In this document: positions 6,401 through 54,692 of the stretch, piece after piece
Position numbering within the stretch: the stretch's first letter is position 1
Layout of the letters: the number at the start of each line of letters is the position of its first letter
DNA from: Centroscyllium fabricii
Lineage: Eukaryota
Assembly: GCA_051313645.2 (NCBI GenBank)
Contig: JBNRSN020000010.1
Location: forward strand, 11,222,001 to 11,286,000
DNA: 64,000 nt
Reading direction: 5' to 3'
Notes under the pieces: model-generated
The model's database searches: none
Told to the model about the DNA's origin: nothing
Seen by the model: the letters and a program-made list of their open reading frames with translations, nothing else
Made by a program: the position numbers and the translations under genes

Positions 6401-7048
6401 CGCAACATCAGACAGTTCACACCAGCATTCGCGATCTGTTTACATGTGCTGAAGTTTTGTATTTCTCACGATTGTCAGCAGAATCAATACTATCCTTGCA
6501 TTCTTCCGAAGCGTCGAATATAAACAGCAATCTCTCTGCCTCCTTCCGGAGCTCTCCCAGATTAAGCCTAAAAAACGGTACAGATCCAGTATCAGATTCC
6601 TCAGGTTTATTGTACTGTTAATAGGGTTCAAATCCCGAAATTTAAAATTTAAAACAAATTCAAAGTGTGGGTATGTTTTCCCAGTAGACCAGTCATGGAA
6701 AATCTTTTGTACCATTATGGTTTTTCCAATCGCCGAGACTCCAATCTCTGCTCCTGAACTCGCAGATCTGGATGTTCCCCGGGAAATACTGCACTGAAAT
6801 AATTGATCATTTCAGATTTTTCCAGTTCTCTCCAGAGATATTTTTGTCACCACACTTTATGATCTCGGCCTCTTGCCAGCAGTTCATGTTCTAAATGTGT
6901 CTGATCTCAAAAACACTAGAAATGACCGTTATATCAGCGTATCGATCAACCAGCTGGAAAATATTAAACTTCTCCTTTGTAAGTTTAGTGTTCACCCTCA
7001 GTGTTTCAGTTTGTACCCGGAGTGTTTTGTTTAGCTTCATTTGAAGAT
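6401..7048 (-). pseudogene. NACHT-domain exon of an NLR (NLRP3/NLRC3-like, cartilaginous-fish type), frameshifted and 3'-truncated
   Basis: After acceptor ttttctaattgaag: DLQMKLNKTLRVQTETLRVNT...FQLVDRYADITVIS...EHELLARGRDH..., Walker A GVSAIGKTIMVQKIFHDW, FEFVLNFKFRDLN, Walker B LLFIFDASEE; several stops and frameshifts; homology ends near 6401. Confidence 0.9.
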
Positions 7049-17959: not shown

Positions 17960-18349
17960 GTCATCAAATTAGCCCTTGCATTGGTTACTTTACCCTTCCC
18001 TCTTGTTGGAATGTACCTAGCCTTTACGTGGCACATATTCTTCCTAAAAATCATCTGTTGTGCCATTACAGATTTTCCTGTCGGTATTTGATTCCAGTTT
18101 ACTCTGGCTAGATCCTTTCACATTCCTTTGACGATGGCCCTATTGCAGTTTATAAGTTCCACTCTAGATTGTTCCTTGCTCCTCTTCATTGCTAATTATA
18201 AACATACGATACGATGATCACTCGTAACTAATTGTTCTGCTCCAGATATAGAAATGCCTTTTCCGAGTGGGGTCAAGATCACACTGGTCAAGAAAATTCT
18301 CCTCAACACAAGTCTGAAAAAACTCCAGCTACAACTACAATCATGCACC

Positions 18350-19090
18350 ATCAGGTTAGGTACAGTAGGAGTTTGACACACTGTAAACCTCCCTCAACAT
18401 TGTCCCATCTAACACATATAGGTCAGTAACAGCACGCGTTAGATATAAAGTAAAGCTCCCTCTAGAATGTCCCTTTTAATATTTCCAGGGCAGGTACTGC
18501 ACTATTCGGATACAGAGCAGAACTCCCTGTGCAATATCTCATCAAACGCACACACCTACTACCGTCAGGTTATAATCAGTAACGGTTAGATAAAGGCAGC
18601 GTCAGATACAGAGAAAAGCTCGGTCTATACTGTCCCATTAATCAAACTTATGTTAGGTACAGCACAGGTTATATAGGGAATAAAGCATTTACTACACTAT
18701 CCCAGCAAACACTCCCAGGGAAGGTGCAGCATGCGTCAGATACAGAATAAAATATCCTGTTCAATGCTCAAACAAACTCTCACATCAACTGACATTAGCT
18801 AAAATGCAGAATGCTTTAGATCAATTTCGCGGTAGATACAGAGTAAAGCCCTATATATACTGTCCTATGATGCAGCTCCAGTGCAGCTACAGCGCAGGTT
18901 AGATACAGTTTGAAGCTTTTGCTACAATGTCCCATCAAAATCTCCCAGGAATGTTACAGCAGGCGTTAGATCCAGAGTAAAGCTCTTTATATACAGTTCC
19001 ATAAAACTCTCCTAGGGTAGGTACAATAAGGCTTTAAAATACAGTTATGCTCCCTCATTATTTTCTCCTCAAAGACTCACGCGACAGTTG
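18350..19090 (+). repeat. Degenerate ~65-bp shark-type minisatellite, about 11 units
   Basis: Repeated ggtacagcac...ttagatacagagtaaagctccctct..actgtcccatcaaac.ctcccagg. Confidence 0.88.
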
Positions 19091-20639
19091 CAGACCGGCA
19101 TATGCATTATCTGACTGGCAGCTATTCATTTATGCAGACTGGCAGGTATTCATTTGTTAGACTCAGGGAATTAAAAGATAAACATACCGCCCAGATCAGC
19201 GAAATGTGGGCCATTCCTCTCCCATTATATGGTCGAGGCTTGATCCAGGCTTTCCTGTTCTGAGATGCCAGGTCAGTGAAATGGAAAACATAATCATTTT
19301 CTTAAGTAACTGGTGTAAAACAGTTTCCACAAGCCACCAAATCACTGTAATAAGGGAAACTCACCATAGCAGAACACCAGAAATCAACCACAGTGATCCC
19401 ATGCTAGAACATTTCTAATATAGGCGATATCAACTTTCATTGCCATACATTCATCTGTATTAGAATCTATGTGGATTATGGTGACTTTGGGAGTGGGTGC
19501 AAAATGGACGTTATTGAATTGATCGCCATTTTATACCGCGTCTAATTTTCCTTTCGATTGACTTGATGGTGTATATTAGGCGGATAGTTGTCTCTCGACC
19601 ATTTTACACAATCACACAACGTTATAATTACCCACCACCCCGTACTATATTCCTGGGCGGTCCTACCCCATCTAACTAATTGTTTAAATTGGTATATTTA
19701 TTAAAGAACTTAACATTTGTTGTTATGCTACCTGTTGACAGCTTAATACACCATTTTAAACTGTCCACTCTCCCGTTTGAAAGCCCCATTAAACATTTTA
19801 CATTCCACGTGATTATATTTAAAACTATTAGCCCCAAACTTCATCAGATGCCTTTATTTGAAGTTTCTCATTTTGGACAATTTTAAATCTGTGCGATGGT
19901 GTTAATGGGCGATGTCCATTTAGCCGACCATAATAATCCCGTTCGATTTTCCTTGCCGTGGGAGTAATTCTGGTTGTGTGCCATGGTGTAAAACGACTGG
20001 TAGCGAATGGGCAGCCGGTTTTATATCCCTTCCGAATGACTCTAACTGAAAGTTAAGTTTCGTGATGTTTATCAGGAGTGGTCCAACCGATATCATCCTG
20101 TTTACATTATTGCCCATAGTTTAAATGACCAACATTCTGTTGCGTCCCTTTCTCACAATATTTGATGGACGCTATTTCCAAGTTACTCTCCGTGCAATTA
20201 ATTACCACACTCAAATTTCCAGAACTAAAGCAAGCAATGTTTATTTCCTTTTTGAATTGAAAGATGTTGATCTGACAAGCAGTCCAGGATCCATTCTAAA
20301 ATGTGTTCTCCACTTTAACCACGCATATTTAGTTTATTCCTGTTTATTTTGTGATAGATAAAATCTCCCAATATGATTAAGCAATTGTTCTTATATTATT
20401 ATTTGTAATGGCTTAAATTATCCCCTTCTATCACATAAGCTTAGCGTTCTGTTATGGCCATCGAGAATTGTAATTTGCGCCTTCCTAATTCATAACCCTC
20501 TCCATGTGAATTCTGTCTCATTTTAACGTCTGTGATGTCATAGTTTCCTGGCGCTGTAATATAAAATGATTCACGAACACTGTCATTCGGCACCTTTTGC
20601 TGATTCTTTCTCTCATGAAAGCTGCAACAACTTGCAATA

Positions 20640-21250
20640 ATATAACGCCTTTACCACAGTACAACGATCCAATCCGCTTCACAGCAGTGCAATCAGATAA
20701 AATTGACATCGAGAGGAAGAAGGATATATTCGGATGGTTGATAAAATGTTTGATGAAAGAGGTGGGCTTTAAGGATTGTAATATAGGAAGAGAGAATCGG
20801 AAAGCCGGAGTTTTTAAGGGAAATATTTCCAGAGCTTAGGGCCTCGGCAGCTGAAGGCACCACTCACATTGGCGCGATGAAGAAAGTGGGAGATGCCCAT
20901 GAGGACAGAGCTGGAGGAACGCATATTGCGAGGGGTTGTAGGCTTTAGAAGGTTACAGATTTGGATTAGCGAGGCCATGGAGAGATTTTAAGAGGAGGAT
21001 GAGAAATTTAAAAGCGAAGTGATGCTGAACAAGGGGACAATAAAATGAGCGCTCACAGGGGAGATGGGTACAAGAGACTTAGTGGAAGTTAACATGTGGC
21101 CGCAGGGTTCACTATGAGCTCAATATTTTGGAGAGTGAAAGTAGAGTGAGCGGCCAAGAGGGCGCTGGATTAGCCAAATCCAATCTGGAGGCTGCAGTAG
21201 CATGCATGATGGTTTCAGCAGCAAATAGGCAGAGGCAAAGATAAACCTGG
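20640..21250 (-). mobile_element. L2-type LINE 3' fragment
   Basis: ttccagagcttagggcctcggcagctgaaggcac block, the reverse complement of the L2 tail at 37740. Confidence 0.65.
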
Positions 21251-24200
21251 GAATTTAAGCTTCAAGGCCTGGCCAAACCTAAGTTATGTTCCCGTTAGAG
21301 AAACATCCGCGTTTCCATAGTTATTAAAACTTCCAACTCCAACTCTGTCTATACTCTTTGTGCATCGACACACGTATCGCTTAATCCTGACTCCAGGTGC
21401 CTTGTGCTGCTGGCTTCAGTTTTCTTCATTGGTGAATTATTCCAGGATGTCAGCTCATTGCATATAAAATGGGTGGTTTGATTTCTGTTCTTGTTCCTAA
21501 TTCCCCGATTTAATCTCGTGTGCATTGGTATATGAAACGTTCTTAACAATGTTTGTCAACTTTCCCATTAACTTGAAATCTTGGATAAGATCACCTTGAT
21601 GTATAATATCTGCTGAAGAAAATAAGTCATATTATCCTGTCTAATATTCGTGATATGATTAGAGCTAAAGTTAAACTCGGTGGTTTATAGTTTGTTTGTG
21701 AACCAGAGTAGTGTAATTAGTGTGATTAATTTAATTTACTTTATCAATTAATTGAAGGGTAAGCAGAGGGGACTGCTGACAGGCAATTGCCCTTGAGTGT
21801 ATCATTTAATTTAAGTTAACGAGACGGTATGTCATGTCTGGAGAGTCCGTCCCCGTGTTCTGCTCCACCTGCGCTATTTGGGAATTCGGGGAGGCTGCCC
21901 GTGTCGCTGTCAACCGTGTGTACTGGATCTGTATCCAGCTGCTGGTACTAGCCGACCGCATTGCGTTGCTGGAGCTGTGGATGTATTCCTTTTGGAGCGT
22001 ACACGATGATGATATGGTCGTGGATAAAACGTTTAGTGAGCTCGTCACACCGCAGGCAAGGGCTGCACAGGCAGAAGGGAAAGGGTTGACCATCAGCCGG
22101 AGTAGTGGAAGCAGGCAGGTAGTGCAGGGGACATCTGTGGCCCTCCTCCTCTTAAACAGGTATACCGAGTGGATACTGTTCAGGGGGCTGAATTACCAGG
22201 AGAAGCCAGCTGCAGGCAACTTCCTGGCACCAGGGGTGCTTCTGCAGAACAGGAGGTGAGGAAAAAGAGTGGGAGAGCAACAGCGGTAGGGGATTCTATC
22301 TTAAATGGAACTGATATGCGTTCTTGTGGCCATAGATGTGACTCCAGGATGGTTTCTTGCCTCCCTTGTGCCAGGGTCAAGTATGTCACTGAACGGCTGC
22401 AGGGTATCCTGAAGGTGGAGGGTATTCAGTCAAAGATCGTGGTTCACATTGGTACCAACGACAAGGGTAGCAAGAGGAATGAGGTCCTGCACCAAGATTT
22501 TACGGAGATAGGTAGCAGATTAAAGGGCATTCCCTCAATGGTTGTAATCACTGGATTACTCGCAGTGCCACGTGCAAGTGAGTATAGGAATAGGACGATA
22601 GAGCAGATGAATAAGTGGCTAAAGACTTGGTGTTATGAGGGAGGCGTTTAGTTTCCTGGATCACTGGGGCTGCTTCTGGGGAAGGTGAGACTTGTACAAA
22701 AGTCGGACAGTTTCCACCTGAACCAGAACGGGACCAATGTCATTGAGGTGAGGTGTGCTAGTACTGTTGCGGAGCGTTTAAACAAACTTGGCAAGGGGAT
22801 GAATGGCGGTGTGGTACTATAGTACAGGGTGACGCACAGCCAAATATAGAGAATAAAACAATTCAGCTTGGAAGGCAGAGCAAATATATAATGGCAAAAG
22901 CGAGTACGGCATGGCTGGATGGCATTTATTTCTTTGCAAGGAGTCTTGCAAATAAGGTAGATGAATTGAAGGTGTTGTTGATATTCTTGCTATCATGGAG
23001 ACATGGTTTAGGGAGGAGCAGGACTGGCAGCTCACTATTCCTGGGTATAGAATCTTCACACGTGACAGGGGGTGGTAAAAGATGAGGGGGTGTCGCAATA
23101 TTAATAAAGGAGTCAATTACTGCTTTAAGCAGGGATTAAATATTAGCAGGTTCCTCTAATGAGGCCTTATTGGTAGAGCATATAAACAAAAATGGGGCAA
23201 GCTCTTTGCTGGGAGTGTACTATAGGCCCCCAAACTGTCAGGGGGAGATAGAGGAACAGGTATGCGGCAAATCTCAGAGAAGTGTGTAAATAAGAAGATG
23301 TCAACTTCCCTAATATTGACAGGGATAGTCAGAGTGTGAAAGGCGTCGAGGGTGCAAAATCATTGAAGTGCATCCAGGAGAGCTTTTCGAGCCAGTATGT
23401 AGAGAGTCCTACAAGAGAGGGGGCGTTACTGGACCTAATTCTAGGGAACGTTGCCGGGCAAGTTGTAGAAGTGTTATTATCAGAGCACCTTGGTGATAGT
23501 GACCATAATTAGGTGAGATTTAAGATAGTCATGGAAAAGAAAAAGTTGGACCGGAAATAAGGGTTCTAAATAGGGGGCAGGCCGAATTTAAAATGATGAG
23601 GCTGGATCTCGCCAAAGTGGACTAGGATCAGCTACTTGTAGGAAATTCCACATCTTTCATTAAGGAAATGGAGAGAGTACAAGGAAAACATGTTCCCATA
23701 AAGGTCAAGGATGGGACGAAAAAGCCCAGGGAACATTGGATGTCAAGGAATATACGAAAATCGATTAGGGAATAAAGGGGGGCATGTTGCAGATACAAAT
23801 AACTAAAGAGAGTGGAAGCGCCAGAGAAATATAGAAAGTGCAGGATGGTACTTAAAAAGAAATTAGGAGACCGAGGAGGGGCTATTAAATAACACCGGCA
23901 GGCAAAATATAGGATAATATCAGGAAGTGTTATAAGTATATCAAGGGCAAGTGGATAACTAGGGAAAGAGTATGGCCAATTAGGTACCAAAGTGGCAATT
24001 TGGGTGTAGAGCCAGAAGATGTAGGTGGGGTTTTTAATTATTTTTTTAAATCTGTGTTCACTATGGAGTAGGACGACGTAGACATAGATATCAGGCAGGG
24101 GGTCTGTGACACACTTGAACATATTTCCATCGATTGGGAGGAGGTACTAGCGGTTTTAGCGTGATTAAAAGTGGATAAATCGCCATACCCGGACGTGATA

Positions 24201-25070
24201 CATCCCAAGCTGCTGTGTGAGGCAAAGGAGTAGATTGCAGGGACTCTAACACAAATTTGAAGAACCACTCTGGTCACAGGGGTGTGCCAGAGGACTGTAG
24301 AAAAGCTAACGTAGTACCATTATTGAAGAAGTGTAGTAGGGATAAACCAAGCAATTAAAGGCCAGTAAGTTTATCATCAGTGGTACGGTTAATTATTGGA
24401 AAAAGTACTGAGGGGCAGAATTAGTTTTCACTAGGAAAGGCAAGGATTCATGAAGGATAGTTTGCATGGCTTTGTGAAGGGAAGATCATGTCTGACCAAT
24501 TTGATTGAATTTTTCGAGGGGGTGACCAGGCTCGTGGATGAGGGTAGTGCAGTGGATGTGGTATACCTGGATTTCTGTAAGACTTTTGATAACGTCCCGC
24601 AAAGGAGACTGGTGAAAAAGGTAAGAGGCCTTGGGACCCAGGGCACCTTGGCACAGTGGATCCAACACTGGTTCAACGGCAGAAGGCAGAGGTTGATTGT
24701 CAAAGTTTGTATTTGTGACTGGAAGCCTGTGTCCAGGGTGTACCACAGGGATCAGTGCTGGGTCCCTTGCTGTTTGTAGTCTACATTAATGTTTTGGATA
24801 TTAATGTAAGGGGTATGATCAGTAATTTCGCTGATGACACGAACATTGGTGGGGTGGCAAATAGCGAGGAGGGAATCCTCTGTCTGAAGGACGATATAGA
24901 TGGGTTGGTCAGCTGGGTGGAGCAGTGGCAAATTGAATTTACCCTGAAAAGTGTGAGGTGATGCATTTTGGAAGCACTAACAAGGCAAGGGAATACGCAA
25001 TGAATGGTGAGACCCATAGAAAGGCAGAGGATCAGAGGGTCGTTGGTGTGCATGTACACAGATCCCTGAA

Positions 25071-25457
25071 ACACAGAAACACAGAAGAGGCAGGAGTAGG
25101 CAATTCGGCCCTTCAAGCCTGCTTCGCGATTTTGATGAGATCATGGCTGATCATCAAAACCCAGCAACGCCCTCCTACCCTCTCCCCATATCCCCCGACA
25201 CCCGCAAACCAATATCTCACACAAATACACATGGGGATTTGTTTTTGTTAGTATCTCCAAATAACCTAACTTGAATGTCTTTGACTGGTGGGAGGAAACG
25301 GAGTACCCAGAGAAATCCCACACGCACACGGGGAGAACATTCAAACTCCATGCAGAGAGGTCCCAGGCCAAGCCCGATTCGAACCCAGGAGTTACTTATT
25401 GTGAGGCAGCAATGCTAACCATTGCGCCACCGTGTTTTCCACTGCACCACTGTGTCG
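25071..25457 (-). mobile_element. HE1-like V-SINE (tRNA-derived head, CR1-derived tail)
   Basis: Reverse A box ggtggcgcaatggttagc and B box ggttcgaatc; V-domain ttctccccgtgtgcgtgtgggatttctc; 8-bp TSD TCCCTGAA (25063-25070 and 25458-25465). Confidence 0.9.
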
Positions 25458-25708
25458 TCCCTGAACGCAGCAGGACAGGTAGATAAGGTGTTTAAAAGCC
25501 ATATGGGATACTGGCGTTCATTATCCGAGGCACATAATCTAAGAGCAGGGAATTTATGATGGAGCTGTACAAAATGCTGGTAAGGCCACAGCTATAGTAT
25601 TGTGTGCAGTTCTGGTTACGACATTATAGGAAGGATGTGATTGCTTTGGAGAGGGTGCAGAGGAAATTCACCAGGAATTTACCTGGGCTGGAGCGCCTCA
25701 CTATGAAG

Positions 25709-25852
25709 AAACATAGGAACATAGAAACTAAGAGCAGGAGTAGGCCATTCGGCCCTTCCGGCCCGTTCCGCCATTTAATGAGATCATGGCTGACCGTCCA
25801 AACCCAGTACCCCGCCCCTGCCCTCTCCCCATATCGCTCGATCGCTATCCCC
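25709..25852 (-). mobile_element. 5'-truncated HE1/HER1 tail insertion
   Basis: acatagaaac tail repeats and aggccattcggccc hairpin, interrupting CR1 ORF2. Confidence 0.8.
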
Positions 25853-26492
25853 AGAAAGTCTGGGCAGGCTGCTGTTGTTTTCCTTGGAGCAGAGAAGGCT
25901 GAGGTGGGACCAGATTGAGGTGTACAAAATAAGGAGGGCACAGATAGGGAGAATAGAACAGAATGTTTTACCTTGGTAGAGGGTCAGTAACAAGGCGGCG
26001 TAGATTCAAGATAAGGGCCGGGAGATTTAGCGGGGATTGGAGGAAGAACTTTTTCACCCAGAGTGTGGTTGGAATCTGGAACTCACTGCCTGAAAGGATG
26101 GTAGAGACAGGAACACTCGCAACATTCAAGAAGCATGTAGATGAGCAACTAAATGAAATAGCACACAAGGTCATGGCCCATTAGCGCTGATTTGCGGCGC
26201 TAATGGGCCGGCGCTAAGGTGCAATTTTCACGCCCATAGAGTTTACAGCAAAGAAAGAGGCCCTTCGGCCCATCGCATCCATGTTGGCCATCAAGCCATG
26301 TCTATTCTCAACCAAGGAGAAGGGTTCCGTTCTATTCAGCTTATTTGTGCCCTTCATCATTTTTTACAGCTCAATCAGGTCCCCCCTCAGCCTTCTCTGC
26401 TCCAAGGAAAATGGGATTAGAATAGACAGGGCTTGATGGTTGGTACAGATGCGATGGGCCGAAAGGCCTCTTTCTGTGCTGCAACGCTCTAT

Positions 26493-28149
26493 GGGCGAGA
26501 AAATGGCACCTTATCGCCGGCCCATTAGCGCCAAAAATCAGCGCTAAAGGGCCAGCGCTGAATTAAAGCCAAAACTAGCGCCGGGCGCTTAATTGGCATA
26601 ATGATTACTGCCAGCACTAAACGTTAGCATGCGCAAATTAGCGATCAGCAATCCTCGTGGAACTGAGTGTACAACGCCCGCCCGCCGGGCTGCACCTAAA
26701 ATGTGTTTTTCCGCCAGTCCACCTCGACCTGCGCTGCCAGTGCCAGCTTCGGCAAGTGCTGCAGCGGGTTTGAGTGGCCGCTGCAGCGCTTCTAAAAGGG
26801 CCACGCTCACTCTTTGGTCCGAGTGGCCAGCTGATGGTGGTAGTCGACCTGAGCGGCCAATTGATGAGAGGGCGGGGAGGGGGGTTGCCCGAACACCCTC
26901 CCCGCTCTCCAATCAGTTCCCGATCGGGGCCGCCGGAACTCCTCCCAGCTCTCTGATCAGTTGCCGATCGACGTTCGTCTGACACCCCCCACCCCTCGGG
27001 GGCCACCAGACACACTGATCAGGGGTTCGGGCGACCCCCGATCCAGCAACTGATCAGAGAGTGGGGAGGCAGTTCGACCGGTCCCCGATCGGCAGCTGAT
27101 CAGAGAGCGGGGAACGGATCGGGCGTCCCCCTATCGGCTGCTGATCAGAGTGCGAGAAGGGGGGACGGTGATTGGCAGCTGTCAGAGTGCAACGAGGGGT
27201 GAGGGAGATCGGCAGCTGATCAGAGTGCGAAGAGGAGGGAGGGATGCCCGAGGTAGGTAAGTGATCACAGTGTGGGTAGGACTCGATGCTGCTCTGCTTC
27301 CCGTTTAAGACCTAATCAGCTGCAGATGTCATGGGGAAGCAATCAGTACGTGAGGGAGGGCTTCTCCCAGGAACGGCAATTAGCGGCAAGATTCGGCCGC
27401 CTGGAATCCGTGCAAGACGTCAATTAGTGCCGAAATCTGCATCGACGGCGCTAACACCAATATTGGCCGCCTCGGCGCTAATCTAGCGCCGGCGCTAATT
27501 TGATACCGGAGCGCACATTTCAGTGCCAGAAAACTTGCTTGCTTCCCCATGACGTTGGGAGCCGAAGAGGTCTTAAAGGGTTAGGGGAAGCAGAGCATCA
27601 TGGTTTTTTCCTCCCTCCCGCATCAACTGTCCTATCTCGGGCCGCTGGACCCCCCCACCCCCCCTCGGCCCTCCCGCATCAATCGGCCGCTCGGAGCCAC
27701 CCGAGCCCTTCCGCGCTCACTCATCAGTTGCTCGATCGGGGGCCGCCGAGCCCTTCCCTGCTCTCTCATGAATTGGCCGCTCGGCCCGCCTCCCCCATCA
27801 GATCGCCACTCGGGATGCCTCACCCCATAAACTGGCCGCTCGGAAAGAAGAGGGAGGGTGGCCCTTTTAGCAGCGCTGCAGCGGCACCTCAAACCCGCTG
27901 CAGAGCTTGCCAAAGCTGGTGCTCGCAGTGTGGGGCGGAGTGGAATGGCAATAGCTAATTTTGGGCGGAGCCTGGCCGGCGGGCGTTGCACACGCATTTC
28001 CACGGGGATTGCTGATCGCTAATAAGCGTGCACTAATGTTTAACGCCTGTTCAGCGCCCGGTGCTAATTTTGGCGCCACCTCGCTGCAGGCATATTAGCG
28101 CCGAATTTCGGCGCTAATTGTCCGGCGCTAACGCGCCAATTTCGTGCCC
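26493..28149. mobile_element. PIF/Harbinger-like MITE, 1657 bp, long imperfect TIRs
   Basis: GGGCGAGAAAATGGC...GCCAATTTCGTGCCC termini; 3-bp TSD TAT; about 400-bp inverted arms with reiterated TTAGCGCC/GGCGCTAA motifs; inserted in the CR1 ctctatga tail. Confidence 0.88.
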
Positions 28150-28159
28150 TATGACTCAT

Positions 28160-28440
28160 ATTTATAAAGCCGCTTTTAATGTAGTAAAACGTCTCAAGGA
28201 GCTTCGAAGGATCGTTATTAAACAGAAATTGACACCGAGGCACATAAAAAGATAAGAGGGCAGATGAAAAGTTGTTTTACCGAGCATCTTGAAGGGGGAA
28301 AGTGAAGTCGAGAGTTGGTGAGGGTGAGTAATGGAATTCCAAACATTAGAGCCTCGACTGCTGAATGCAGTTCTCTCAATCATGGAGCGATTAAAATCGG
28401 TGGTCTGCAAGAAGCCAGAACTAGTGGAACGCAGAAATAA
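28160..28440 (-). mobile_element. L2-type 3' tail fragment
   Basis: tttataaagccgcttttaatgtagtaaaacgtctcaaggagctt...ggaattccaaacattagagcctcg. Confidence 0.6.
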
Positions 28441-29044
28441 TTATGGGGCCTAGTCTCCTTGTCCTGATGCCCTCTTTATCTTATTATTATTGTTATCATT
28501 TTTGACAAATTTGTTAATTCCCAGCCTTGTTTACCTACTCTTACAGCACCTGTCCTGAACACAACTCACACTAAAGCGTCACTTTCTCTCCTCGAGCTGG
28601 CACCTGGTGGTGCGCATTTTTAGTTCGCAGTCCTAGAGATGTTTAACTGTGTTCTGAACGGTCCGCTTTACCGTATTTGGTATTGTCATTCACACCTCTT
28701 GGATCCTATTGACGCAATATTTTGGCTGCCAGACCGAAAGACACAAACAGACATACGATTTACCACTGATAGATTAGTGGCAGCCCATTCCGAAGGACAC
28801 ATAGTGCATTATCTTATCAATATCGCTGAATAACTGACCCTTCTGCGTCTTCTCTACCTCCAGACTCGAATTAAATGTGGAATTCCGGCGCTGTTACCGA
28901 CGCTAACTAAATGCGATTCATTTTAATTGTGCCCAATTGTGTTAAAGTCTCGATATCACATCGATATCGGAAAACTGCAACGGGAAAGTTAATCTGGCAA
29001 TTTCTATAGGACGGCCAATCCGCTATCGCCCGTTCTACTCTAAC

Positions 29045-30195
29045 AAGTGCAAGAAGTCACATACCAGATTATAGTCCAACAGTTTTATTTTAAATCACAA
29101 GCTTTCGGAGCTTCTGCCCCTTCGTCAGGTGAAAGAGAGACTGACTTAAAGAATGCACATATGGGAGCAAGGGAGAAATCCGGTCTCACCCACATCTCAC
29201 CTTAGCAGAGACAGACAGAGCACACAAAGGCGTATTACATATTTTAAGAGATTCATTTAAACATAGCATATATATAGAGAGAGAACAATGTGGTTTCTAC
29301 AGCTGATTTCCATCACACCTCAGCTGAGGGACATCAAAGAAATCAAAGGTGTTCTAACATATCAGTCAGCCTGAGATCAAAGGGTGCAGTCACAAAGGGT
29401 CAAACGTTAAAGTCTGCTGTCCTTGAAAATCTGACAGAATGATTTTTTTAAAACAAGGATTTTTCTGACTGAAAATCGCAGAACAAGCCAAAGGTGGATC
29501 GAGTCTGGATGACTCTATGTCAGGCGGGGTCACATGTAGCGCGACATAAATCAAATACCACGGTTGAGCCCATGCTCTTGGGTGCGGAATTTGGCTATCA
29601 GCCTCTACTCGACGATTTTGCATTGTCGTGTGTCTCGAAGGCCACCTTGGAGAATACTCACCCGAAGATCGGAAGCTGAATGTCCTTGACTGCTGAAATG
29701 TTCCCCGGCTGGGACGGAACACTCCTGCCTGGCGACTGTTGTGCGGTGCCTGTTCATCCGTTGTCATGGTGTCTGCATGGTCTCGCCGATGTACCATGCC
29801 CCGGGGCATCCTTTCCTGCAACGTATGAGGTAGACAACATTGGTTAAGTTACATGAGTATGTACCATGTACCTGGTGTGTTGTGTCCTCACGTTTGATGA
29901 TGCTATCTGTGCTGATGTTTTTGCACGTTTTGCAGAGGTTGCTGTGGCAGGGATGTGTGGTGTCGTGGTTGCTGTTCTCCTGAAGGCTGGGTAATTTGCT
30001 GCGAACGATAGTCTGTTTGAGGTTAGGTGGCTGTTTTAAGGCAAGAAGTGGAGGCGTGGGGATGGCCTTAGCGAGGTGTTCATCATCATTAATGACATGT
30101 TGAAGGCTGCGAAGAACATGGCGTAGTTTCTGCATTCTGGGGAAGTACTGGACGACAAATGGTACTCTGTTGGTTGTGTCTCGTGCCTTCCAGTG
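29045..30195 (-). mobile_element. Penelope-like retroelement 3' portion with GIY-YIG endonuclease
   Basis: RVPFVVQYFP...PPLLALKQPPNLKQTIVRSKL...PCHSNLCKTC...YSCNLTNVVYLIRCRKGCPGAWYIGET; pLTR-type tail at 29045-29140. Confidence 0.92.
29095..29132 (-). ncRNA. Minimal type I hammerhead ribozyme motif
   Basis: Minus strand tcac-CTGACGA-a-GGGGC agaa GCTCC-GAAA-gc-TT-gtga. Confidence 0.78.
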
Positions 30196-30739
30196 ATACA
30201 CAAAGCCAACACACCTGGATGCAACAACTGTCCGAAGTTTCATCGACAACATTTTGCTCCTAAGCGATCGCGATCGAACAAAAATAAGAGCAGCAGAGTA
30301 ATGGGAACAACAACATTCCGAATTTACACTTCAAGCTACACTTCACCTCAGAGGGCTATATACCGCCATTTATTCACAGGATTGGATCAATATCCTGAGA
30401 TTCCTCTCCTGACGCCACCCTGGGAGCATCAGGCTCAAAAGGCATTCAGTGATTCAAAGAGAATGCCCGCCGTCAGGACCAGGCATCTTGGAAGGGCGCA
30501 TAAATGTTTCTTACCTACAACCACCCATATTTTTGAGAACAACTAAAGGGGACATTTTTCCAGATCGAAACCTCAGCATACAAATATTCTGATAGGGAAG
30601 CTTGTTAACATTGCATCATCTCATTCCAATCACTTATGAAGTTAACGGCAGTCACGCAACATGAAGCACTGCATGATGAAATTCTTATCTCGCTTCAGGT
30701 GGATTTATCCCATTGATGAAGGGCGTCTGTCTGACTTTT

Positions 30740-31170
30740 ACTTACTCTTTCCTGGAGTGTGGGCACACCTGGTAAGGCCAAAATTTATTGCTGACTCCTA
30801 ATTGCCCTTGAGTAAATGGTGGGGAGCCGCCTTCTCGATCCGCTGCAGTATTATTGATTCCCGCTGCTGTTTGCTAGGGCAGTTAAGACTCAATCACATT
30901 GCTGTGTGTCTGGAGTCAAATATTGTCCTGACCAGGTAAGGACGGCATGTTTACTTCCCTAAAGGACAATATTGAACCAGATTTGTTTTATGACAATGCG
31001 ATATTTTCAATCGTCACCATTACTGATACTAGCTTTTTATTCCCGTTTTTTAAATTACGTTAATATAAATTTTCCAGCTGCTGTGGTGGACTTCTGAACT
31101 ATCGTATCTAGATCATTATTCAAAGCCTCTTGGAATGCTAGTCCAGTAAAAAAAACACGATACTACCAGT
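30740..31170 (-). mobile_element. Old SINE/LINE-tail composite
   Basis: tttattgc...taattgcccttgag LINE tail and ggtaaggacggca...ttccctaaaggaca SINE core; similar pieces at 32550-32870 and 37080-37430. Confidence 0.55.
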
Positions 31171-31439
31171 TCATTATCCAGCGCGCACATTGGAAACTGT
31201 GCGTTCTGCGTCTACAGAGAGTTGTTTCTGTGAGCTTTGTACATTCCTGATGAAAATGGAGGGAACACGGCCCTACCCTGCTGGGATCCGGGATGGTCGG
31301 CTTAACAAAGCCACTTTTGTTCAGCCCGGGTCTCTTGCACAGATATTATACTATATGCATCATCACTCTCTGAGGACAGACAATGTAAATCTCAGCACAT
31401 GTCGGGACTTCAGCAAACACCCCCTCAAAAATAAATAGC

Positions 31440-31850
31440 TCCTACAGTTATGGAGGTTTTCACGTCCTCGGAATGTCCCCAAGCATTTCCCAGTTAACCA
31501 ACTGCAGAATACAGTCACTGTTCTTGACAGGCAAACGATGCAACAAAGCGATATCGTGCAAATGGTATTGCGATAATTGGCCAGTTAAATAATTTTAGTG
31601 GCATAGACTAAGGTATCAATATTCGCTAACATCACTACCTTCTTCAAATAGTTCCAGAGTATGTTTGCGTTCACCTGAACAGGCAGACGAGGCTTCAGTT
31701 AAACTTTGGGTCCAACAGATGATCGCTCCACACAGTGCAGTTCTCACCCGGCACTGCACTGGGCGTCAGCCTGGATTATGAGCGTAAGGTCTACAATGAG
31801 GCATGAAGCCGCGTTCTTCTGATTCCGAGGCGAGTGTTCAGAAATAAGTG
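31440..31850 (-). mobile_element. DeuSINE (SacSINE1-like)
   Basis: Deu-domain-like cacctgaacaggcagacg...cagtgcag...gcactgcactgg.gtcagcctggattatg and tRNA-like head remnant. Confidence 0.6.
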
Positions 31851-33036
31851 ACAGCCGCCTCTGCAATAGGTGAGACATTGGTCAAAGCCACACATTGTCC
31901 TGCCCCGCTATCGCCTTCAAAATTCCAGTACGGGTCTACAAAATTGGTATTTTATGTAAAGTCAATGCTCTACCAAGACTATACTTAAAACTGGAAACAA
32001 AGATGGCAATTCTGGAGACGCAAGCAGCTTCAAAATTACTTTGACAAGGAAACAAAGTTTGGTGATTCAGAATCAATATTTCGATAGATGCATTGGACCC
32101 AAAAGAAATGTTTTGTTTCCTGTGTCACACCCTCTTCGGAATCATTGCTTATGCTGCTTTGCTTTGCTGAGAATGGGGGATTATTGGACGAGGTAACTGC
32201 TAATAAAGGAGTAGAGTGGCAAAATCGAAGTTAAAAGCTTACTTGCATTACATTCTGACTCCAGTTTTCATAACACTGAGTGTCTTTACAGGATAAATTT
32301 GTAAATTTTCTCTCGCAGTGCTGCTGCATTTGCTTCCCATCCTGGGTTTCGATGGGTTTCGATGGCGGCATTAAGAGTGGGCACCTCTGTGTATATTTGC
32401 ATTGAGTGTAACAGTACAAAACGGATGATTATTCACTTCCATTGATTCAATGAAGTTAAACAACGGGGTGGTGGACGACATTCAGATGACACATGTTACT
32501 GTATCACGCAAAGTTGAAATGTGCCCGGAACTGGAGTTAAGTGTCATGCAAAGAGGTAGATGCGGGAGGCTTCTTTCCCTGAAGGATATTATGTCACCAG
32601 TTGGATTTAAAGAAAAATCTTGAGGTTGAGATAAATAGCCAGTTAATCTGTCCTTTTGTGGCTTCAGTTAACGAATGACGGTCAGCCGAAAGTACAATAT
32701 TCAACATATGCTGAGAAGGGATTCCTTACTTCCTCCTGAACATCAGTTACAATCAGCATAATTTATTTGGACCCAGTCGAGAAATTACCTTATTTTATTG
32801 AATTCAATGTCACAGCTTGTGTGGTTGGTATTTAAATCGCGACATTTGGACTGCTAATCCCAGATTTCCAGACCACCAATCTGTCCCATAGAGTCCAACC
32901 TGGTATCCGTTGTATGCACCCTCCATTGCGCTCCAACTATTATTTTGAATGCTTTGCGAATCTTATTCCAGAACTCTGCTCCTATAGTTTTTGTTCACGT
33001 TACTCGGCAAATGCTGCCCATGCCATTAATGTTTTA

Positions 33037-34295
33037 AGAACATAAGACCATAAGAAATAGGAGCAGGAGTAGGCCAATCGGCCCTTCGAGCCTGCTCCGC
33101 CGTTCAAAAAGATCATGGCTGATCTGATCCTAAACTCAATTTTATTTCTACTCTCCACCCCGCCCAGACCCATGTGATCACCTGGGAGAGGCGAAAAACC
33201 AGATTTTAAAAAACAGTAGCCAATTTGGGAGAAAAAAATCAGGAAAATTCCTCTCCGACCCATCTAGGCGATCGAAAACTGGTCCAGGAGATCACATGGC
33301 CGATCTGAACCTAGCCTCACGTCCACCTACCTGCCCGCTCACCATAACCCCTAATTCCCTTTAATTCCAGGAAACTGTCTATCTCAGTTTTAAATTTATT
33401 CAAAGTAGTAGCTTCCACAGCTCTCTGGGGCAGCAGATTACACAGCCCCACCACCCTCTGAGTAAAGAAGTTCCCCCTCATCTCAGTTTTGAAATGGCAG
33501 CCCCTTATTTTATGATAATGCCCACTAGTCCTAGTCTCACCCACCATTGGGAACATCCTCACCGCATCCACCCAATCAAGCCCTCTCACAATCTTATATG
33601 TTTCAATAAGATCGCCTCTCATTCTTCTGAACTCCAATGAGAAGAGGCCCAATCTACTCAGCCTCTTGTCATATGTTAGCCCCCTCATCCCCGGAATTAA
33701 CCTAGTGAACATTCTCTGCCTCGAGAGCAAGTATGTCCTTTCTTAAATAGGGATACCAGAACAGCACGCAGTATTCCAGGTGTGGTCTCACAAATACCCC
33801 GTACAACTGCAGCAAGACCTCCCTGCTTTTATACTCAATCCCCTTTGAAATAAAAGTCAACATTCCGTTGGCCTTCCTTACCACCTGCTGCACCTGCATA
33901 TTAACTTTTTGTGTTTCCTGCACCAGGACCCCCAGATCCCTTTGCACTGAAGAACTTTCCAGTTCCTTTCCATTTAGATAATAACTCGCTCTATTATTTT
34001 TCCTGCCAAAGTGCATAACTTCACATTTTCCAGTATTATACTCCATCTGCCAAATCTCTGCCCACTCACTTAGCCTATCTTTGTCCTTTTGCAGGTTTGT
34101 AATGTCCTCCTCATTCATAACCCTCCCTCCCATCTTTGTGTCATCTGCAAACTTTGATAAGTTGCACTTGGTCCCTTCTTGCACATCGTTAATATAGATT
34201 GTAAAGAGTTGGGGTCCCAGCACCGACCCTTGCGGAACACCACTAGTGACTGACTGCCAGTCTGAGAACGAACCATTTATCCCAACTCTGTTTTC
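33037..34295 (-). mobile_element. Relatively young 5'-truncated CR1 (RT C-half and 3'UTR)
   Basis: VTSGVPQGSVLGPQLFTIYIND...SKFADDTK...RPHLEYCVLFWYP (216-aa ORF) and NFFTQRVVGLCNLLP; cataag tail. Confidence 0.95.
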
Positions 34296-37200
34296 CGGGA
34301 GCACAGTGAGGATGTTGGGCAGGTAGCGATATTGGGGTGAATCGCATCTCAAAAGCTCATACTTTCAATATTAGCATCTGGAAACTTGCTCTGTTATCAT
34401 GCAAACCATTCCAACGCTGGATTCAAATCACGTTGTCACATATTGCTGCAGACAGCTATTGGCAAGTATTACTCCTTTTATTATCTACTACCTATTCACA
34501 CTTTATGCCTACGTGCACTTCTTCTCTAACAAACCTAATTTATGTGGTCACATTTCGGTATTAAACTTTCTCCTAATAAAAATTCAGTTTTCCATCTTTT
34601 TACTGTAAACTCCATAAACACATGAAACTATGCCCCGCCAGTGGTGACGCTGTAGTGTCTCAGGTTTACTTATCCACGGTCCTGAGTTTCTCCGGCGGAA
34701 GAAGGTGCAAGAAGCCTCAAAAAAATCAAATTCTCAAATTGCATTAAGATTTAGAATTTAATTATAAGTAATAATATTAAATCAAGGAATTCCATCAGAA
34801 TATGGACAATATATATGACTTAAAAATGGGGAACCAATCGACTTTACACACCCTTATCCAACTAATGTGTGGGAACGGACATTTGTATAGTATAATTTAC
34901 CCATTCAAAAGGAACACTTTAATTCATGAGATGGACTGATTTGTGTCCCTGTTCATACAGTCTCCTTGTATGCATCGATTGCACATCACATCTACCTTTA
35001 TTCATTGGTGGCAAATTCTCACTGGGCACCGTGATCAAATCGCGGAATTTGGAATTCCATCCACAAAGGGGAATCTCCATTGCAATAAACTGAACTCTGA
35101 CTGCACCTGTTGGTCACTCTGATGACCAGCTTCATCGGTTTTGCTCAAGTAGAACTTCAGTTTACCGCCGTGTTTTTCGTTCAGATTTTTACCATCACGT
35201 TCAGTGTCTGTTTACACTGTGCCTGTCCCATCGGATCAAAGAAGACAATGATCATATCGGGCTGTGCACTTGCAGACAGAAAACGAGGGAAAAATCCTGA
35301 AACGTTCACGGTGTTAGAGGTGTATGTTAATAATGCCCAATAGATTTCCACAATGGATGAGTTCATGCTCTGAAAGGTGGGGGGCAAAAGCCTATGAAGG
35401 CAGAAATTTGTTCAGAAGCTCTGCTGCGTCAACTACGCTCAGCCGGGGTTCAGTGGATATTGCAAATTTGCTGAGTGGGCTCTGGGTCTGGGGGTGTTGG
35501 CAATCAGCGACTGCCTCCCATAGTTCCTCCCTGATTATTGACTGCTTGCACGTGCAGGTAGGGTGAGGGGACCGAATAGGCTCCATTGTATTAGATTGCA
35601 GTAAATAAACGCCAGCCCACGCACAGTGACTTGGCTCAAATAAACACACCAGGTACCAGAGGCCAACTACGTCCGTGGAAGGGAATCGGGCAAGAGTTAC
35701 TCTCCAGAATTGAGAAAGCAGCAAAAATATGAACCAAAGAAGATTCCGTTCATGAAGTGTGTGGTAGTGAAATCGTGGCGGTACTGGACTAGCAGCCCAG
35801 AGGTTGAGAATTGCAAACTCTGTGTTGTGAAACAGAATTAAATAATTTGCCGCCACAACATTACCATGGAGACTGCTGGATTATTATAACAAATATTCAC
35901 TAACCTCACTTCAGAGTAGGGAACTTGTCACGCCTACCCAGTCTGGAATACATGCGATCTCAGTGCCACACTATGTGGTAAGACAGGCTCCGCTATACGC
36001 CAGGACGCTCTGAGTGTCCAGTCTTCGCATTCTTTATTGGGAGAAAAGGTGTAGTCCGTCGCTGGTCGTCGATGCGCTTCAAAATTCGTTTCACAGGCCC
36101 TGCAGAACAAGGCAGACTCATAACTGGCTGAACAATCAGCTGTCCGTCTACCGGCGATCGATGTTGGCACCCGGTGTGTATTCCTGAGTGGATGTGGAAT
36201 ATGGGGAATGAGTCTGATTACAAACCAGGCAAACAGAAACACTACCGGAGTGGATTTTCAAATCCAGAAATTATGAAATGTATTATTGCCAACAGAAACT
36301 TAACACGCTCACTGAAATGTCGCCTCGCTTCCCACTTCCTGTTGCACTGAATTTTGTTCGCCCATCACTCCCATCTCCACTTATTCTGCAGAGTCAGTGG
36401 GCTAGGAATTCTCATCCGGCAGTGGAGCAAAGCAAGCGATATCGCATCTGCCGCCCGTTATATGCAGCGCCTGATATTCAGCTGACTGCAATAGAGCTGA
36501 ATATCAGGCACCGCTACAACGGGTGGCCGATGCGATACCGCTCGTTGTTCACCACCGCCCGACCTGAATTTCTAGTCCAAAGAATTTGCTATCCTAATCC
36601 TCGCCCACAGTTCACTCTGCAGCTTTTACCAAACTCGTATTATCAAATTGCTTATAGCTCATCAACTTCTCATTGGCGATCCACCTTGGTTTTTTTTGAT
36701 CTAATATTTAAATAAAAGTATGTATTCGGTTTATGAACCCTATAACTGTTATCTATTGTTGTCTTTGTCTTTATCACTTGAGTTATTTGTCTCTAAACTC
36801 GAAACCATTCGACATTTAGCCGCTGTACAAACGGAAGCTTATTTAATTCTATTTAATAGTGTTTCGGAACAAAGTTTCCCTTTAAATGTTAGCTCTTTAA
36901 GGGGAAGGCTGGACGTTGGTTCATTTCTGAAAGCCGATACAACGAAATAACTTCGAACTCGGACCTTGCTCAGTGGTGTCCAGGCTCTCCACGTCTCCTT
37001 TGTCGCCCGATTTCCTACATACACTGGGTTAAGTATGGCAGTGAAGTTGTTAAGTTTCTGGTCTAGAAATCGAGCAAAAAATTAAGTCCTACCACTGAAG
37101 ATAAGAAGCTCATTCCTTTTTTAACAATCTGGAAATAAATAGTTTGTATTAGTATACATGAGCATAAGGCTGGCGGATTGTCATAAAAACTAACTGGTTC

Positions 37201-37619
37201 ATTAAAACCGTTTAGGGAAGTCAAACTGTCATCCTTACCCGCTCTGACATATACGTAACTCCAGTCCCTCCGCAGTAGGTTTGCCAACTTGCCTCTGTAG
37301 TAAACTAGGAGCGGCTTAGTTATATCACAGAAAATATATCACCAATTTAAGAAGAAAGTTCCCCACCACATTTTCAGGACAACGAAGGATGGGCGATTAG
37401 TGCCAAAGCTGCCGGTCACGCTGACATCCCGGGAAAGAAGATTAAATCCAAATTATAGAAAACTGCCAGGTTTTAATATTGAAATGTGTTCCCAGAAATT
37501 TCCAAATGATCGAGCGCTGGCGTTTATCACACGGTGTGGGTTGATCAGGTCCCGTTCACCCATCAACTGACTTTGTCATTCTTTCCGCAAATGCCTCTAT
37601 TTTATAATTAACAACAATG

Positions 37620-37870
37620 TGTTCAATAAATCCCTCATGTACCTACTCCAGCCCAACAACCCTCCCAAGAACGTTGAGTTCCTTCAATTCCGTCCTCTTT
37701 TGCATCTTCGCTGTTCACTGATCCACTTTTGGCAGCCGTGCCTTCAGCTGTCTGGACCCGAAGCTCTGCAATTCACTTTTTAATCCGCTCCTCCATAAAG
37801 TCACGCCTTAAAAACTATATATTTGATAAAGCTTTTTGGTCATCTATCCGAATATCCCAAATGCTGTACC
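37620..37870 (+). mobile_element. L2-type 3' end
   Basis: ctccagcccaacaaccctcc...ggcagccgtgccttcagctg...ccttaaaaactatatatttga. Confidence 0.6.
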
Positions 37871-38899
37871 GATACCAAATTCCCTCTGAAAACGCTCGGC
37901 TTTAGTCCCATATTCTTCTCTACATTGCATTCCGCCTGTTATTTCCCAGATAATCTCCATTGCGCAGTTTATGATACGGGTAGTTTCTGTCCCTCTATAT
38001 TTGCCCCACTGAGTTTACATTCTCCGGGTATATTCGCCGTGTATTTTATAACCCCTGCTTATTTTAATTTAGTCTCTATTCTCCTGTTTATTTCAATGTA
38101 GATTATATTCCTTGGTTATTCCCATTTGTTTTCAATTTCCCTTATTATTCTCGATTTAGTTCCTATTATACAGTGTAGTTCCCTTTATTGTATACCCCAA
38201 TGTTCATTCAAAACTCTGAGTATTCCCCATACAGTGTCTGTACCCTGTGTTCATCTCGCGTTAAGCACTCCCTCATTACTGCACTGAAATATTAGGCCAG
38301 CAATGTGCTTGAGACGTCGAGTCCTTACACAAACTAACTTCTGTCTCAGAGGTGATGATGTTGACACGGAGCTCCGGCTGAGACGAGGCACCCTTTATTT
38401 CAAACCCAGCTCTTTGATTGGCGATCCCAACATTTTAAGCCTTTGTATTACTCGTCAGATAAAAGCTTTTGTAGCAAAATTTCAATCATCCGATATAGAT
38501 TGGAAATAGCTGCATCAGGACAATAACGAAACTGCATCGCAACATTTTTGCATTGAAGGTGGAGGCCATTCGTGTCATCGTGGCTGCGCTTGCTCCGTGA
38601 ATCTGCAAGCCCTTTAATGCCATTTCACCACCGTTTCCCCATTCCCATATTTTCCATTGTGGAAATATTTATTCCTTTCTTTTTTAAATATATACTGAGT
38701 CTGTGTAACCAACTATTTCTGATCGATCACTCCATATACTAAAAACCACCTGCCTGCTTAAAGCAATTCCAAACCTCTCCCCTCTTTGGTTATAATCGAA
38801 AGCTTCATCCACCAGTGAGAATAGTGTTTCTCCATTCTCCTCGTGACATTCCCACAGAATTCTTTACTGCAAACTGTATTTTGTCTAATGGAGAAAAAC

Positions 38900-39050
38900 A
38901 TCTCTCAATCCATCGATATATCTTTAAATATCTCCATCTGTCCCTCTTTGTGTCTATCTGTCTCTCTCTATTTTATCTGTCTCTCTCCCTCATCGTATCT
39001 CTTTCTCTCTATCTATCTATGTTCCTTCCTCTCTTGTCTCTTTCTCTTTT
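38900..39050. repeat. TC/TCTA-rich low-complexity tract
   Basis: Pyrimidine-rich degenerate microsatellite. Confidence 0.8.
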
Positions 39051-40039
39051 CCAAAAGAGCAACCGTAAAACTTTCTCCGGTAAGCAGATTTAAATCACCT
39101 GTCCATCAACCTACTACTTCAAGCACGTGCCATTCATCTTCCCAGCTTTCATTCGATGCTTCATCTCCAATAAAGCACGTCGTCACTGTTTAACGCTACA
39201 TTGCTTAAAACTGAGAGATCTAATTTCAATATTTAGGAACCATCGAATAGTCTGTAGGACATTCTGCCTGTGTAAGGCTCGTAGTTCAATAGTGAAAACT
39301 CCACTGGACTGAGGGGAGAGAGGATGTGAGTGTTTTCCTTTCTGTTGTCTGTAATACTGACAGACGCTGTGAATTTACCTTCGATCTGATCCAGATATTG
39401 GAACTGCTGGTATAGGTGGAGTGTAGCCTTGCCCTCTGAAAATAAAAACAAATATTAGAGGAAATAAATGATAATTCCTCGTAACTAATTTAAAAAGTTC
39501 CTCGTTGGAGCTGCGTTCAGTTGTATATTTACCTTTGTAGTTCAAAGACACGCAAGTAACAAGAGACAAGATTAACACGGTTGATATTTTTCAGGCGGTC
39601 TCGAACATGCTACAGAAAGTAGCGCCCCTGGATGTTTTCTATATGGGCTTCCAGAAGGCATTAGATCCGTTTTTGAACAAGTGGTTTTAGCAAAAATGAA
39701 AGGGTGTAGAATTGGAGGGAAACATCTGAAATGGCTGGAAATTTGTTTGGAACGAATGTGACCATTATTCCGTTTTGCAACTCTTTCCTGTTTAGTCATT
39801 TGTAGAAACTCCTACAATCTGCTTTCAAATTGCTCGCCAGTTTTCTCTCATTTTAGTATTCACCGTGTTATTAATTGTTGTCAACCTTTGCTGGTTTCTG
39901 AAACTCTCCCAAATCTCAGGCTTGGTATTAGTCTTCGCAACATTATAAACATCTTCTTTCAATCTAATGCTATCCTTAGTTAGCCATGGATAGATCCCTT
40001 TTCCCGTGGACATTTTCCTTCTCAATGGAATGTATTTTT

Positions 40040-53706: not shown

Positions 53707-53773
53707 AAAGTACCTCCATATAAATGTCAGTCAGACACTGGCATATTATTTCTCTCCTCTCTCTTTCTCACAG

Positions 53774-54692
53774 CGAACTTGGTGACAATGGTGATTCTAT
53801 TCCGAGGAAACTGCGGCCTTTCCAAGTGTATCTCTGTCTACATGGTGGCCATGGCAATAGCAGATCTACTAGTCATGGTAATCAATGTAATGGTGTATCA
53901 TATTCTCAGTTATCACTTTCAACGTTCCTCACTGCACCTACACCCGTATGTAAGTTCATTCTATATTTGACGGCTGTCACCCTCGATTTGTCTGTTTGGT
54001 TCACCGTCTCCTTCACATTTGACCGGTTTGTGGTTATCTGTTGCCAGAAGTTTAAAACAAACTATTGCACCGAAAGAACTGCGATTGCGATTGTAACAAC
54101 GTTTTCTGTCCTGATCTTCATGAAGAACATCACCTTTTTCTTTGTATATGAACCTCAACAAATAATTAACAAGGTACAGTGGGGCTGCGGGTCAAGTGCG
54201 ACGTTCTTTTCCTCAACTCCAGGTGCAGCGTTCTTCTGGTTTCACATCGTCTGGGTAGTATGGCTTCCTTTTGCTGTAATCGTCTTGTGTAATTCTTTGA
54301 CTATCAGTCGTATTTTAGCGGCCAGCAGAGCCCGCAGGGGATTCCGGAGTCACACGAGTGATAATCCGTGTGACCCAGCGATCCAGAATCGAAGGAAATC
54401 CATTATTTTACTGTTTACTATATCGGGATGTTTTATCCTGTTGTGGATGACAGCTGTAGTGAGTTTTGCAGCTGCCGGACTGACAAATATCAATTATTAC
54501 CGAGGCGACCGCACAAACCCAAACTATATCGCCACTGAAACCGGAACTATGCTGAAGCTTTTGAGTTCCTGTATAAACCCGTGTATTTATGCAGCAACCC
54601 AGGGAAAATTCAGAGAAGAGCTGCAGAAGTTGCTGAAATCTCCCTGGGAACTGATTCTAAAATTGTTTAAAAATAAAATTAATTTGAACTAG
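53774..54692 (+). CDS. GPR139-like: Main coding exon of the GPR139-like receptor (TM1-TM7); intact if the 1-bp deletion near 53939 is a sequencing error
   Basis: DRF (DRY-like), NPCIY (NPxxY) and seven hydrophobic segments across two frames; no other lesions seen. Confidence 0.6.

Follow-up and report, generated by a model that had tools for sequence, protein, structure and literature searches.

Whether the remains of a dynamin-superfamily gene lying beside NLR and G-protein-coupled receptor (GPCR) genes in a shark genome record the turnover of an innate-immunity family, or the copying and discarding of a conserved neighbour, is the question raised by a stretch of 64,000 nucleotides (nt) from Centroscyllium fabricii (C2:11,222,001-11,286,000, C2 being contig JBNRSN020000010.1). 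This whole stretch is referred to below as the window, and its own positions are counted from its first letter. On the minus strand, the window holds pieces of a gene which a preliminary description had taken for a dead duplicate of an EHD/sarcalumenin-related GTPase, and as a hint of a possible immune GTPase family in birth-and-death evolution. We regard the element, with a probability of roughly 0.88, as a broken, inverted, intron-bearing partial duplicate of an intact EHD-like gene with 12 exons. The duplicate retains exons 4, 6, 7, 8 and part of 9, likely arose by segmental duplication of an NLR/GPCR array, and has likely been dead from about its birth.

The copy, its parent and its lesions

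The parent gene, found with shark orthologue queries, lies on the same contig as the window (C2:10,888,484-10,928,365, plus strand) and consists of 12 exons, all of whose introns are GT-AG, with 1,350 nt and 449 codons free of internal stops. The window copy lies approximately 330 kb from the parent's end, in the opposite orientation. Its parts, in the order of the parent's exons, are as follows.

18315..39562, minus strand: whole duplicated segment, collinear with parent introns 3 to 9 (C2:10,904,461-10,926,864) in inverted orientation
39379..39433, minus strand: copy of parent exon 4, 55 nt, AG/GT intact; 88% identity with flanks, E 7e-44
37540..37560, minus strand: exon 5 deletion junction, joined near 37548, with 2-base microhomology and no differences across it in contigs of four of four public runs
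35107..35269, minus strand: copy of exon 6 (G4 motif region), frameshifted by a 2-base insertion near 35190; the assembly has AA at the acceptor
31277..31369, minus strand: copy of exon 7, with a stop at 31348-31346 and a 6-base deletion
28583..28725, minus strand: copy of exon 8, with stops at 28692-28690 and 28635-28633 and a 3-base deletion
19188..19275, minus strand: exon 9 remnant, acceptor AC, 84 bases missing; E 6e-23 and 9e-21

The duplicate comprises about 21 kb and has kept its introns; homology to the parent runs in ordered blastn blocks of 74-81% identity from 39,562 down to 18,315, interrupted by later repeat insertions. The 5' limit of the copy falls in intron 3 of the parent, ahead of exon 4 by about 130 bases, and its 3' limit in parent intron 9. 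At the DNA level, exons 4, 6, 7 and 8 are 81-88% identical to those of the parent (E 7e-44 to 3e-65), while the best match in the reversed window, which served as a control, had an E of 0.016; by blastn and tblastn, exons 1-3, 5 and 10-12 gave no match in the window above that control. All of the peptides quoted previously are present at their places on the minus strand, and the four exons described align to the intact parent. The fifth remnant, that of exon 9, which in the parent encodes the first predicted transmembrane segment, had been missed, as it lies outside the span then given. The splice phases match as had been said once the 141-nt exon 5 is skipped. In the assembly, the acceptor of exon 6 has AA in place of AG. 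A Pfam scan of four single stop-free pieces of the window found no family, the pieces being too short.

Three in-register stops, at parent codons 234, 271 and 291, together with the 2-base insertion in exon 6, bear out the three stops and the frameshift of the preliminary description, and in-frame losses have removed 6 bases from exon 7 and 3 bases from exon 8. In addition, a deletion of ~1.5 kb removed exon 5 (phase 1-1, carrying the G3 DTPG motif) plus its donor site. Neither the P-loop exon nor the DTPG exon had been found in the window, and both are indeed missing, the former because parent homology ends upstream of exon 4, and the latter because the deletion took exon 5; the copy itself is without the G1 and G3 motifs. 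Exon 6 and the exon 5 junction were also checked in four public runs, which represent two samples from one study. Contigs of all four show both the frameshift of exon 6 and the junction of the deletion, and an assembly error is therefore unlikely, with the reservation that one of the runs may have served for the assembly itself. The acceptor of exon 6 is AA in the assembly, but contigs of three of the four runs carry an AG allele. Two alleles are seen at window 34,900-37,015, with 27 substitutions and two indels between them in ~2.1 kb (1.3%), and the one other than that of the assembly still agrees with the parent at the exon 6 acceptor and at two positions within exon 6.

The former coding sites of the copy have diverged in a neutral-like manner. 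Outside the exons, copy and parent differ by 22.5% over 10,163 aligned columns (Jukes-Cantor distance 0.268), and over 528 coding sites the nonsynonymous divergence (dN) is 0.143 and the synonymous divergence (dS) 0.202, which gives a dN/dS of 0.71. The 54.5 nonsynonymous differences observed compare with 51.2 expected for a copy neutral from birth and an unchanged parent. When 47 amino-acid differences were polarised with nine elasmobranch orthologues, 36 fell on the copy and 3 on the parent (p 4e-8), leaving 8 unpolarised; in the tree, the copy is sister to the parent (support 93/87), on a branch of 0.36 compared with 0.053 for the parent. The copy has likely been non-functional from about its birth. 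As a side observation, transition bias is nearly absent between window 18,315-39,562 and the parent introns (909 transitions, 1,378 transversions), and likewise in a young duplicate near the parent (122 transitions, 197 transversions).

The NLR/GPCR array and the other fragments

The copy had been placed in an NLR/GPCR neighbourhood, and this is a real array. At least 25 distinct NACHT loci lie on C2 between 4.6 and 15.5 Mb, as counted in the 150 matches listed of 313 candidates, and 14 GPCR loci lie in ~660 kb around the parent. Lineage-specific NLR expansions in cartilaginous fishes are reported in PMC8455134. The genome searches described here give lower bounds, the protein search having been a stricter first look and the DNA searches skipping common words. 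The exon 6 DNA search gave three matches, all on C2 inside 350 kb and one of them with an open frame, and the 42 matches of the protein search comprise the parent, two distant paralogues on the contigs C905 and C822, and fragments on C2. The fragments lie at 10.69, 10.97, 11.00, 11.25 (the window copy), 12.05, 12.10, 12.15 and 16.37 Mb, with an additional part of exon 8 at 10.968 Mb. In-register stops occur in seven of the eight; the eighth starts in intron 7, and its exon 10 acceptor is broken. None of the eight copies showed a sign of exons 1-3. Genome-wide, exon 2, which carries the P-loop, has one DNA match, in the parent only; exon 3 is matched in C822 besides the parent and nowhere else, and exon 5 has matches in C905, C822 and the broken 11.00 Mb copy as well as in the parent. 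Behind three of the fragments, at 10.97 Mb (95%), 11.00 Mb (74-76%) and 12.10 Mb (73-87%), the 3' flank of the parent is repeated together with its GPCR, and immediately to the left of the window, 19 kb past the 3' end of the window copy, there is a collinear GPCR block (73%). The young duplicate mentioned above (93-96%; C2:10,963,754-10,994,142) is a same-strand copy of parent exons 8-12 with the GPCR; it has no in-register stop, an exon 10 acceptor of AT, and 20 nonsynonymous differences to 1 synonymous (p 0.04 by itself and 0.015 when set against the rate of its introns; one of the eight copies).

Repeat-mediated unequal recombination in the array would have made the copy, and selection, if any, would have acted on the GPCR and NLR genes, with the gene fragment hitchhiking. 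The fragments look like hitchhikers of the NLR/GPCR array and not like immune-family turnover. In its retained introns, collinearity with a nearby parent, truncation, disablement, neutral divergence and co-duplicated neighbour gene, the element resembles the duplicated (unprocessed) pseudogenes of segmental-duplication arrays. It shows no difference of kind from ordinary duplicated pseudogenes, its parent being a conserved single gene in an NLR/GPCR array which has shed at least eight fragments. The window copy itself is ordinary, a duplicated pseudogene fragment of known type; it illustrates how, in the large genome of a shark, an NLR/GPCR array copies pieces of a conserved neighbour and discards them, and cautions that such fragments should not be taken for immune-family turnover.

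Several points weigh against this account. The copy is absent from the twin of its own tandem unit: a 79-kb unit joins window 1-8,894 and 49,616-61,217 and corresponds, at 85-92% identity and with GPCRs and an NLR relic, to C2:11,290,008-11,360,862, where the twin is without window 8,895-49,615 but has its own insertion of ~40.6 kb. We infer a deletion in the twin, a later insertion of the copy being possible. The differences counted (54.5 nonsynonymous) are few, so that a short functional period may have followed the duplication, and the 5' truncation could be later than the duplication. Diverged copies bearing a P-loop could be missed by genome searches that yield lower bounds, and the parent, judged from its sequence, is intact at the level of the reading frame, to which this statement is limited. 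The parent is truly embedded among NLRs, copies of it arose repeatedly, and one young fragment of the eight has the 20:1 ratio of nonsynonymous to synonymous differences (p 0.04). Finally, the geometry of the membrane hairpin predicted below for the parent family rests on secondary structure, hydropathy and aligned range.

Two other genes of the array stand in the window as neighbours of the copy.

6443..6811, minus strand: broken NACHT (NLR) relic, Pfam NACHT E 7e-8, frames broken by stops
53724..54692, plus strand: single-exon rhodopsin-family GPCR, Pfam 7tm_1 E 1.6e-14, 322-codon open reading frame (ORF)

The GPCR is apparently frameshifted near 53,930; compared with all paralogues it is split at residue 69-73, its first ~70 residues being off-frame, and it has a 91% twin at C2:11,355,048. 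Decayed retroelement ORFs occur at window 10,000-13,300, 21,800-26,200, 29,700-30,900, 33,300-34,400 and 43,700-47,300, and appear, from labels read off their translations, to be LTR-like, LINE-like and possibly a piece of a Penelope-like endonuclease. Tandem arrays lie at 7,448-7,865 (period 41) and 15,365-15,811 (period ~66/130).

The parent family and the rival readings

A protein search with exon 6 gave 1,008 matches at E <=0.001; many among the best 120 are named si:dkey-98f17.5 or si:ch211-11k18.4, and many of them carry Dynamin_N and MMR_HSR1 domains. The parent shares 55-83% identity over 449 amino acids with 16 members of this si:dkey-98f17.5/si:ch211-11k18.4 family, as well as the motifs GNHSAGKS, DTPG and SKADE, and the two are alike in their length of about 449 amino acids, in their Dynamin_N and MMR_HSR1 domains, and in two C-terminal hydrophobic segments. 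In the G domain, the parent is closest to its shark and ray orthologues (86-90% identity), followed by bony vertebrates (79-84%) and by abalone, brittle star, acorn worm and annelid proteins (78-80%). A tree of 33 rows made by a careful method, with which a quick-method tree of 56 rows agrees, resolves an 11k18.4 clade (99/97), which holds C905, a 98f17.5 clade (100/97), which holds C822, and a third clade (98/97) of shark, ray and lungfish proteins together with the parent. Each clade has one gene per sampled species, and the genome carries three apparently intact paralogues, one in each of these three old jawed-vertebrate clades, which probably stem from vertebrate genome duplications. The likeness to si:dkey-98f17.5 suggested before therefore holds at the level of the family, but orthology of the parent to that gene was rejected, since the parent falls in a separate clade and it is the C822 gene that belongs to the 98f17.5 clade. 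The C822 gene (C822:468,732,543-469,252,812) extends over at least 520 kb, and its P-loop is the variant GSHSSGKS; the parent spans 40 kb and the C905 gene ~62 kb.

Beyond animals, a profile search gave 337 representatives at E <=1e-30, 30 of which were looked up; from their genera, we take these to include a filasterean, a choanoflagellate, an amoebozoan, a green alga, a stramenopile, an apusomonad, a cryptophyte and two metamonads. To judge from these matches, the family spans animals to amoebae, algae and metamonads and is pan-eukaryotic. A loss in all amniotes was considered and rejected, as the best 120 of 1,191 matches include five squamate proteins; mammals and birds are not seen among those 120, which is a weak negative. 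In a 2012 table (PMC3530609), the best human match of zebrafish si:ch211-11k18.4 is sarcalumenin at an E of only 2e-5, which suggests that humans have no orthologue of the family. A scan of prokaryote genomes gave one weak match among 64 pattern matches (23% identity, E 1e-5), which was not used; the Atlas bacterial clusters scored below 0.9 and are leads only, and NCBIfam gave sub-threshold matches only. We found no paper that characterises the family: the gene names of the family were met in a single paper, in a table, and the tree of PMC7016017 may hold members under accession numbers. The lineage does not appear in the portions consulted of two dynamin phylogeny studies (PMC10280142; PMC11326297 and PMC11789081), the last of these records stating that sarcalumenins were left out.

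It had been proposed that the family, or its shark paralogue, is an innate-immunity GTPase evolving by birth and death beside NLR genes. The place of the parent inside the array on C2, the presence of at least eight copies from different times (~72-96% identity), the young fragment with 20 nonsynonymous differences to 1 synonymous, and the long branches and altered P-loops of some family lineages are all in its favour, and the family shares with Mx, GBP and IRG a dynamin-superfamily G domain and, in one paralogue, proximity to NLR genes. Nevertheless, this reading is improbable. All eight extra copies are fragments, none of which, within the lower bounds stated, has the P-loop exon; the family is pan-eukaryotic and forms three old clades with a single gene per sampled species, its G domain is strongly conserved from sharks and rays to invertebrates, and the parent lineage shows only 3 to 11 amino-acid changes compared with ~51 expected under neutrality. 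The 20:1 ratio has a p of 0.04 and concerns one of the eight copies examined. By fold, MxB ranks 36th, with a Z of 10.3 against 21.4 for EHD4. Nor was the supposed linkage of the family to NLR clusters seen beyond the parent: among the 150 NACHT matches listed of 313, none is on C905 or C822, and no NACHT or GPCR match lies in ~240 kb around either of these two paralogues (the C822 stretches being non-contiguous). Compared with Mx, GBP and IRG, the parent family evolves far more slowly, shows no intact tandem paralogues within the lower bounds of the searches, and has a predicted transmembrane anchor; its fold matches MxB less well than EHD4.

Even less probable is the reading of the copy as a complete paralogue which worked for long, died recently and lost its ends by deletion. 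Internal deletions after the duplication (exon 5 and part of exon 9) make terminal loss plausible, and the dS (0.20) and dN/dS are noisy, but the nonsynonymous differences already amount to the full one-lineage neutral expectation, which leaves little time under constraint. That the fragments are regulatory or coding, as antisense or decoy RNA, or with the young exons 8-12 copy at C2:10.97-10.98 Mb supplying the parent with an alternative 3' end, is very improbable, for although that copy lies 42 kb downstream of the parent on the same strand, is free of in-register stops and keeps four of five acceptors intact, its exon 10 of 113 nt has an AT acceptor and its skipping would shift the frame, and the window copy evolves neutrally, with two alleles 27 substitutions apart in ~2.1 kb.

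Fold and putative membrane anchor

While the partial copy is best read as a discarded piece of its parent, the main lead from the locus is the parent family, which is pan-eukaryotic, strongly conserved, of EHD-type fold and apparently uncharacterised, with a predicted transmembrane hairpin. Dynamin_N and MMR_HSR1 are matched in all seven proteins scanned against Pfam, and neither an EH domain nor EHD_N is matched in any of the seven at E 0.1. The nearest solved relatives by sequence are EHD4 and EHD2 (E 8e-9). An AlphaFold2 model of a catshark orthologue (mean predicted local distance difference test score 76, predicted template modelling score 0.66), which ends in a helix at residue 446, has active EHD4 as its best Foldseek match (E 2e-13). 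VIA-align likewise places EHD4 first (Z 21.4, root-mean-square deviation (rmsd) 3.6, 314 residues aligned, range 20-441) and mitofusin 2 next (Z 15.8), with MxB at an rmsd of 7.9 over 240 aligned residues. GBP, IRG and atlastin are not among the fold matches listed, which EHD leads; this excludes nothing. The Dynamin_N matches, together with EHD4/EHD2 as nearest by both sequence and fold, agree with the earlier assignment of the window copy to a dead duplicate of an EHD/sarcalumenin-related, dynamin-superfamily gene. The word GTPase is a putative label, because the nearest solved relatives are ATPases. The residue after G4 is Glu in the family and Gln in EHD4, and this residue alone does not decide between ATP and GTP.

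The likeness to the EHD1-4 ATPases (EHD4 5mtv, EHD2 2qpt) covers both the G domain and the helical domain, the parent family having a dynamin-type G domain, the G1, G3 and G4 motifs and an EHD-like helical domain. In contrast to EHD, the family has no match to an EH domain or EHD_N, and identity is 15-18%; it has two predicted transmembrane helices in place of the polybasic helix of EHD2 (PMC5084822). The reported ATP-specificity device of EHD, which is made of the EH tail and a Met after G4, is absent because the G4 of the family is SKADE. At least two C-terminal hydrophobic segments were found by hydropathy in 50 of the 56 rows; among the other six, three sequences as built end before the C-terminal region and two are short records. 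Two transmembrane helices are therefore predicted in the parent family, which would form a hairpin at the tip. A G domain, a helical stalk and a transmembrane pair at the tip also occur in atlastin, mitofusin, BDLP and the bacterial relatives of EHD and sarcalumenin, and mitofusin and bacterial dynamin-like proteins are the next fold matches after EHD (Z 15.8-12). The G domain of the parent family is of the EHD type, not of the atlastin/GBP or mitofusin type.

According to PMC7016017, the bacterial proteins nearest to EHD and sarcalumenin carry two transmembrane helices behind the G domain; the part consulted describes this architecture in bacteria only and names no eukaryotic clade that has it. 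From the EHD-like fold, the lack of an EH domain, the C-terminal hydrophobic segments and these bacterial relatives, we infer a membrane-anchored nucleoside triphosphatase (NTPase); the parent protein would be a putative remodelling or tethering enzyme with a housekeeping role. Tentatively, and at somewhat less than even odds, the family may form, within the EHD/sarcalumenin lineage, an undescribed third branch of eukaryotic proteins that dates back to the last eukaryotic common ancestor and would have kept the bacterial two-helix anchor as an integral-membrane NTPase of tethering, shaping or fusion. It would retain ~80% identity across animals, with three paralogues in sharks and two in zebrafish, would be present in amphibians and lizards, and would have been overlooked because it was seemingly lost in humans. 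The family is directly testable in zebrafish and would bear on the origin of EHD from membrane-anchored bacterial ancestors. Among its members, catfish and elephant shark paralogues (rows P0349, P0203 and P0351) have long branches and altered P-loops, and are candidates for a changed function.

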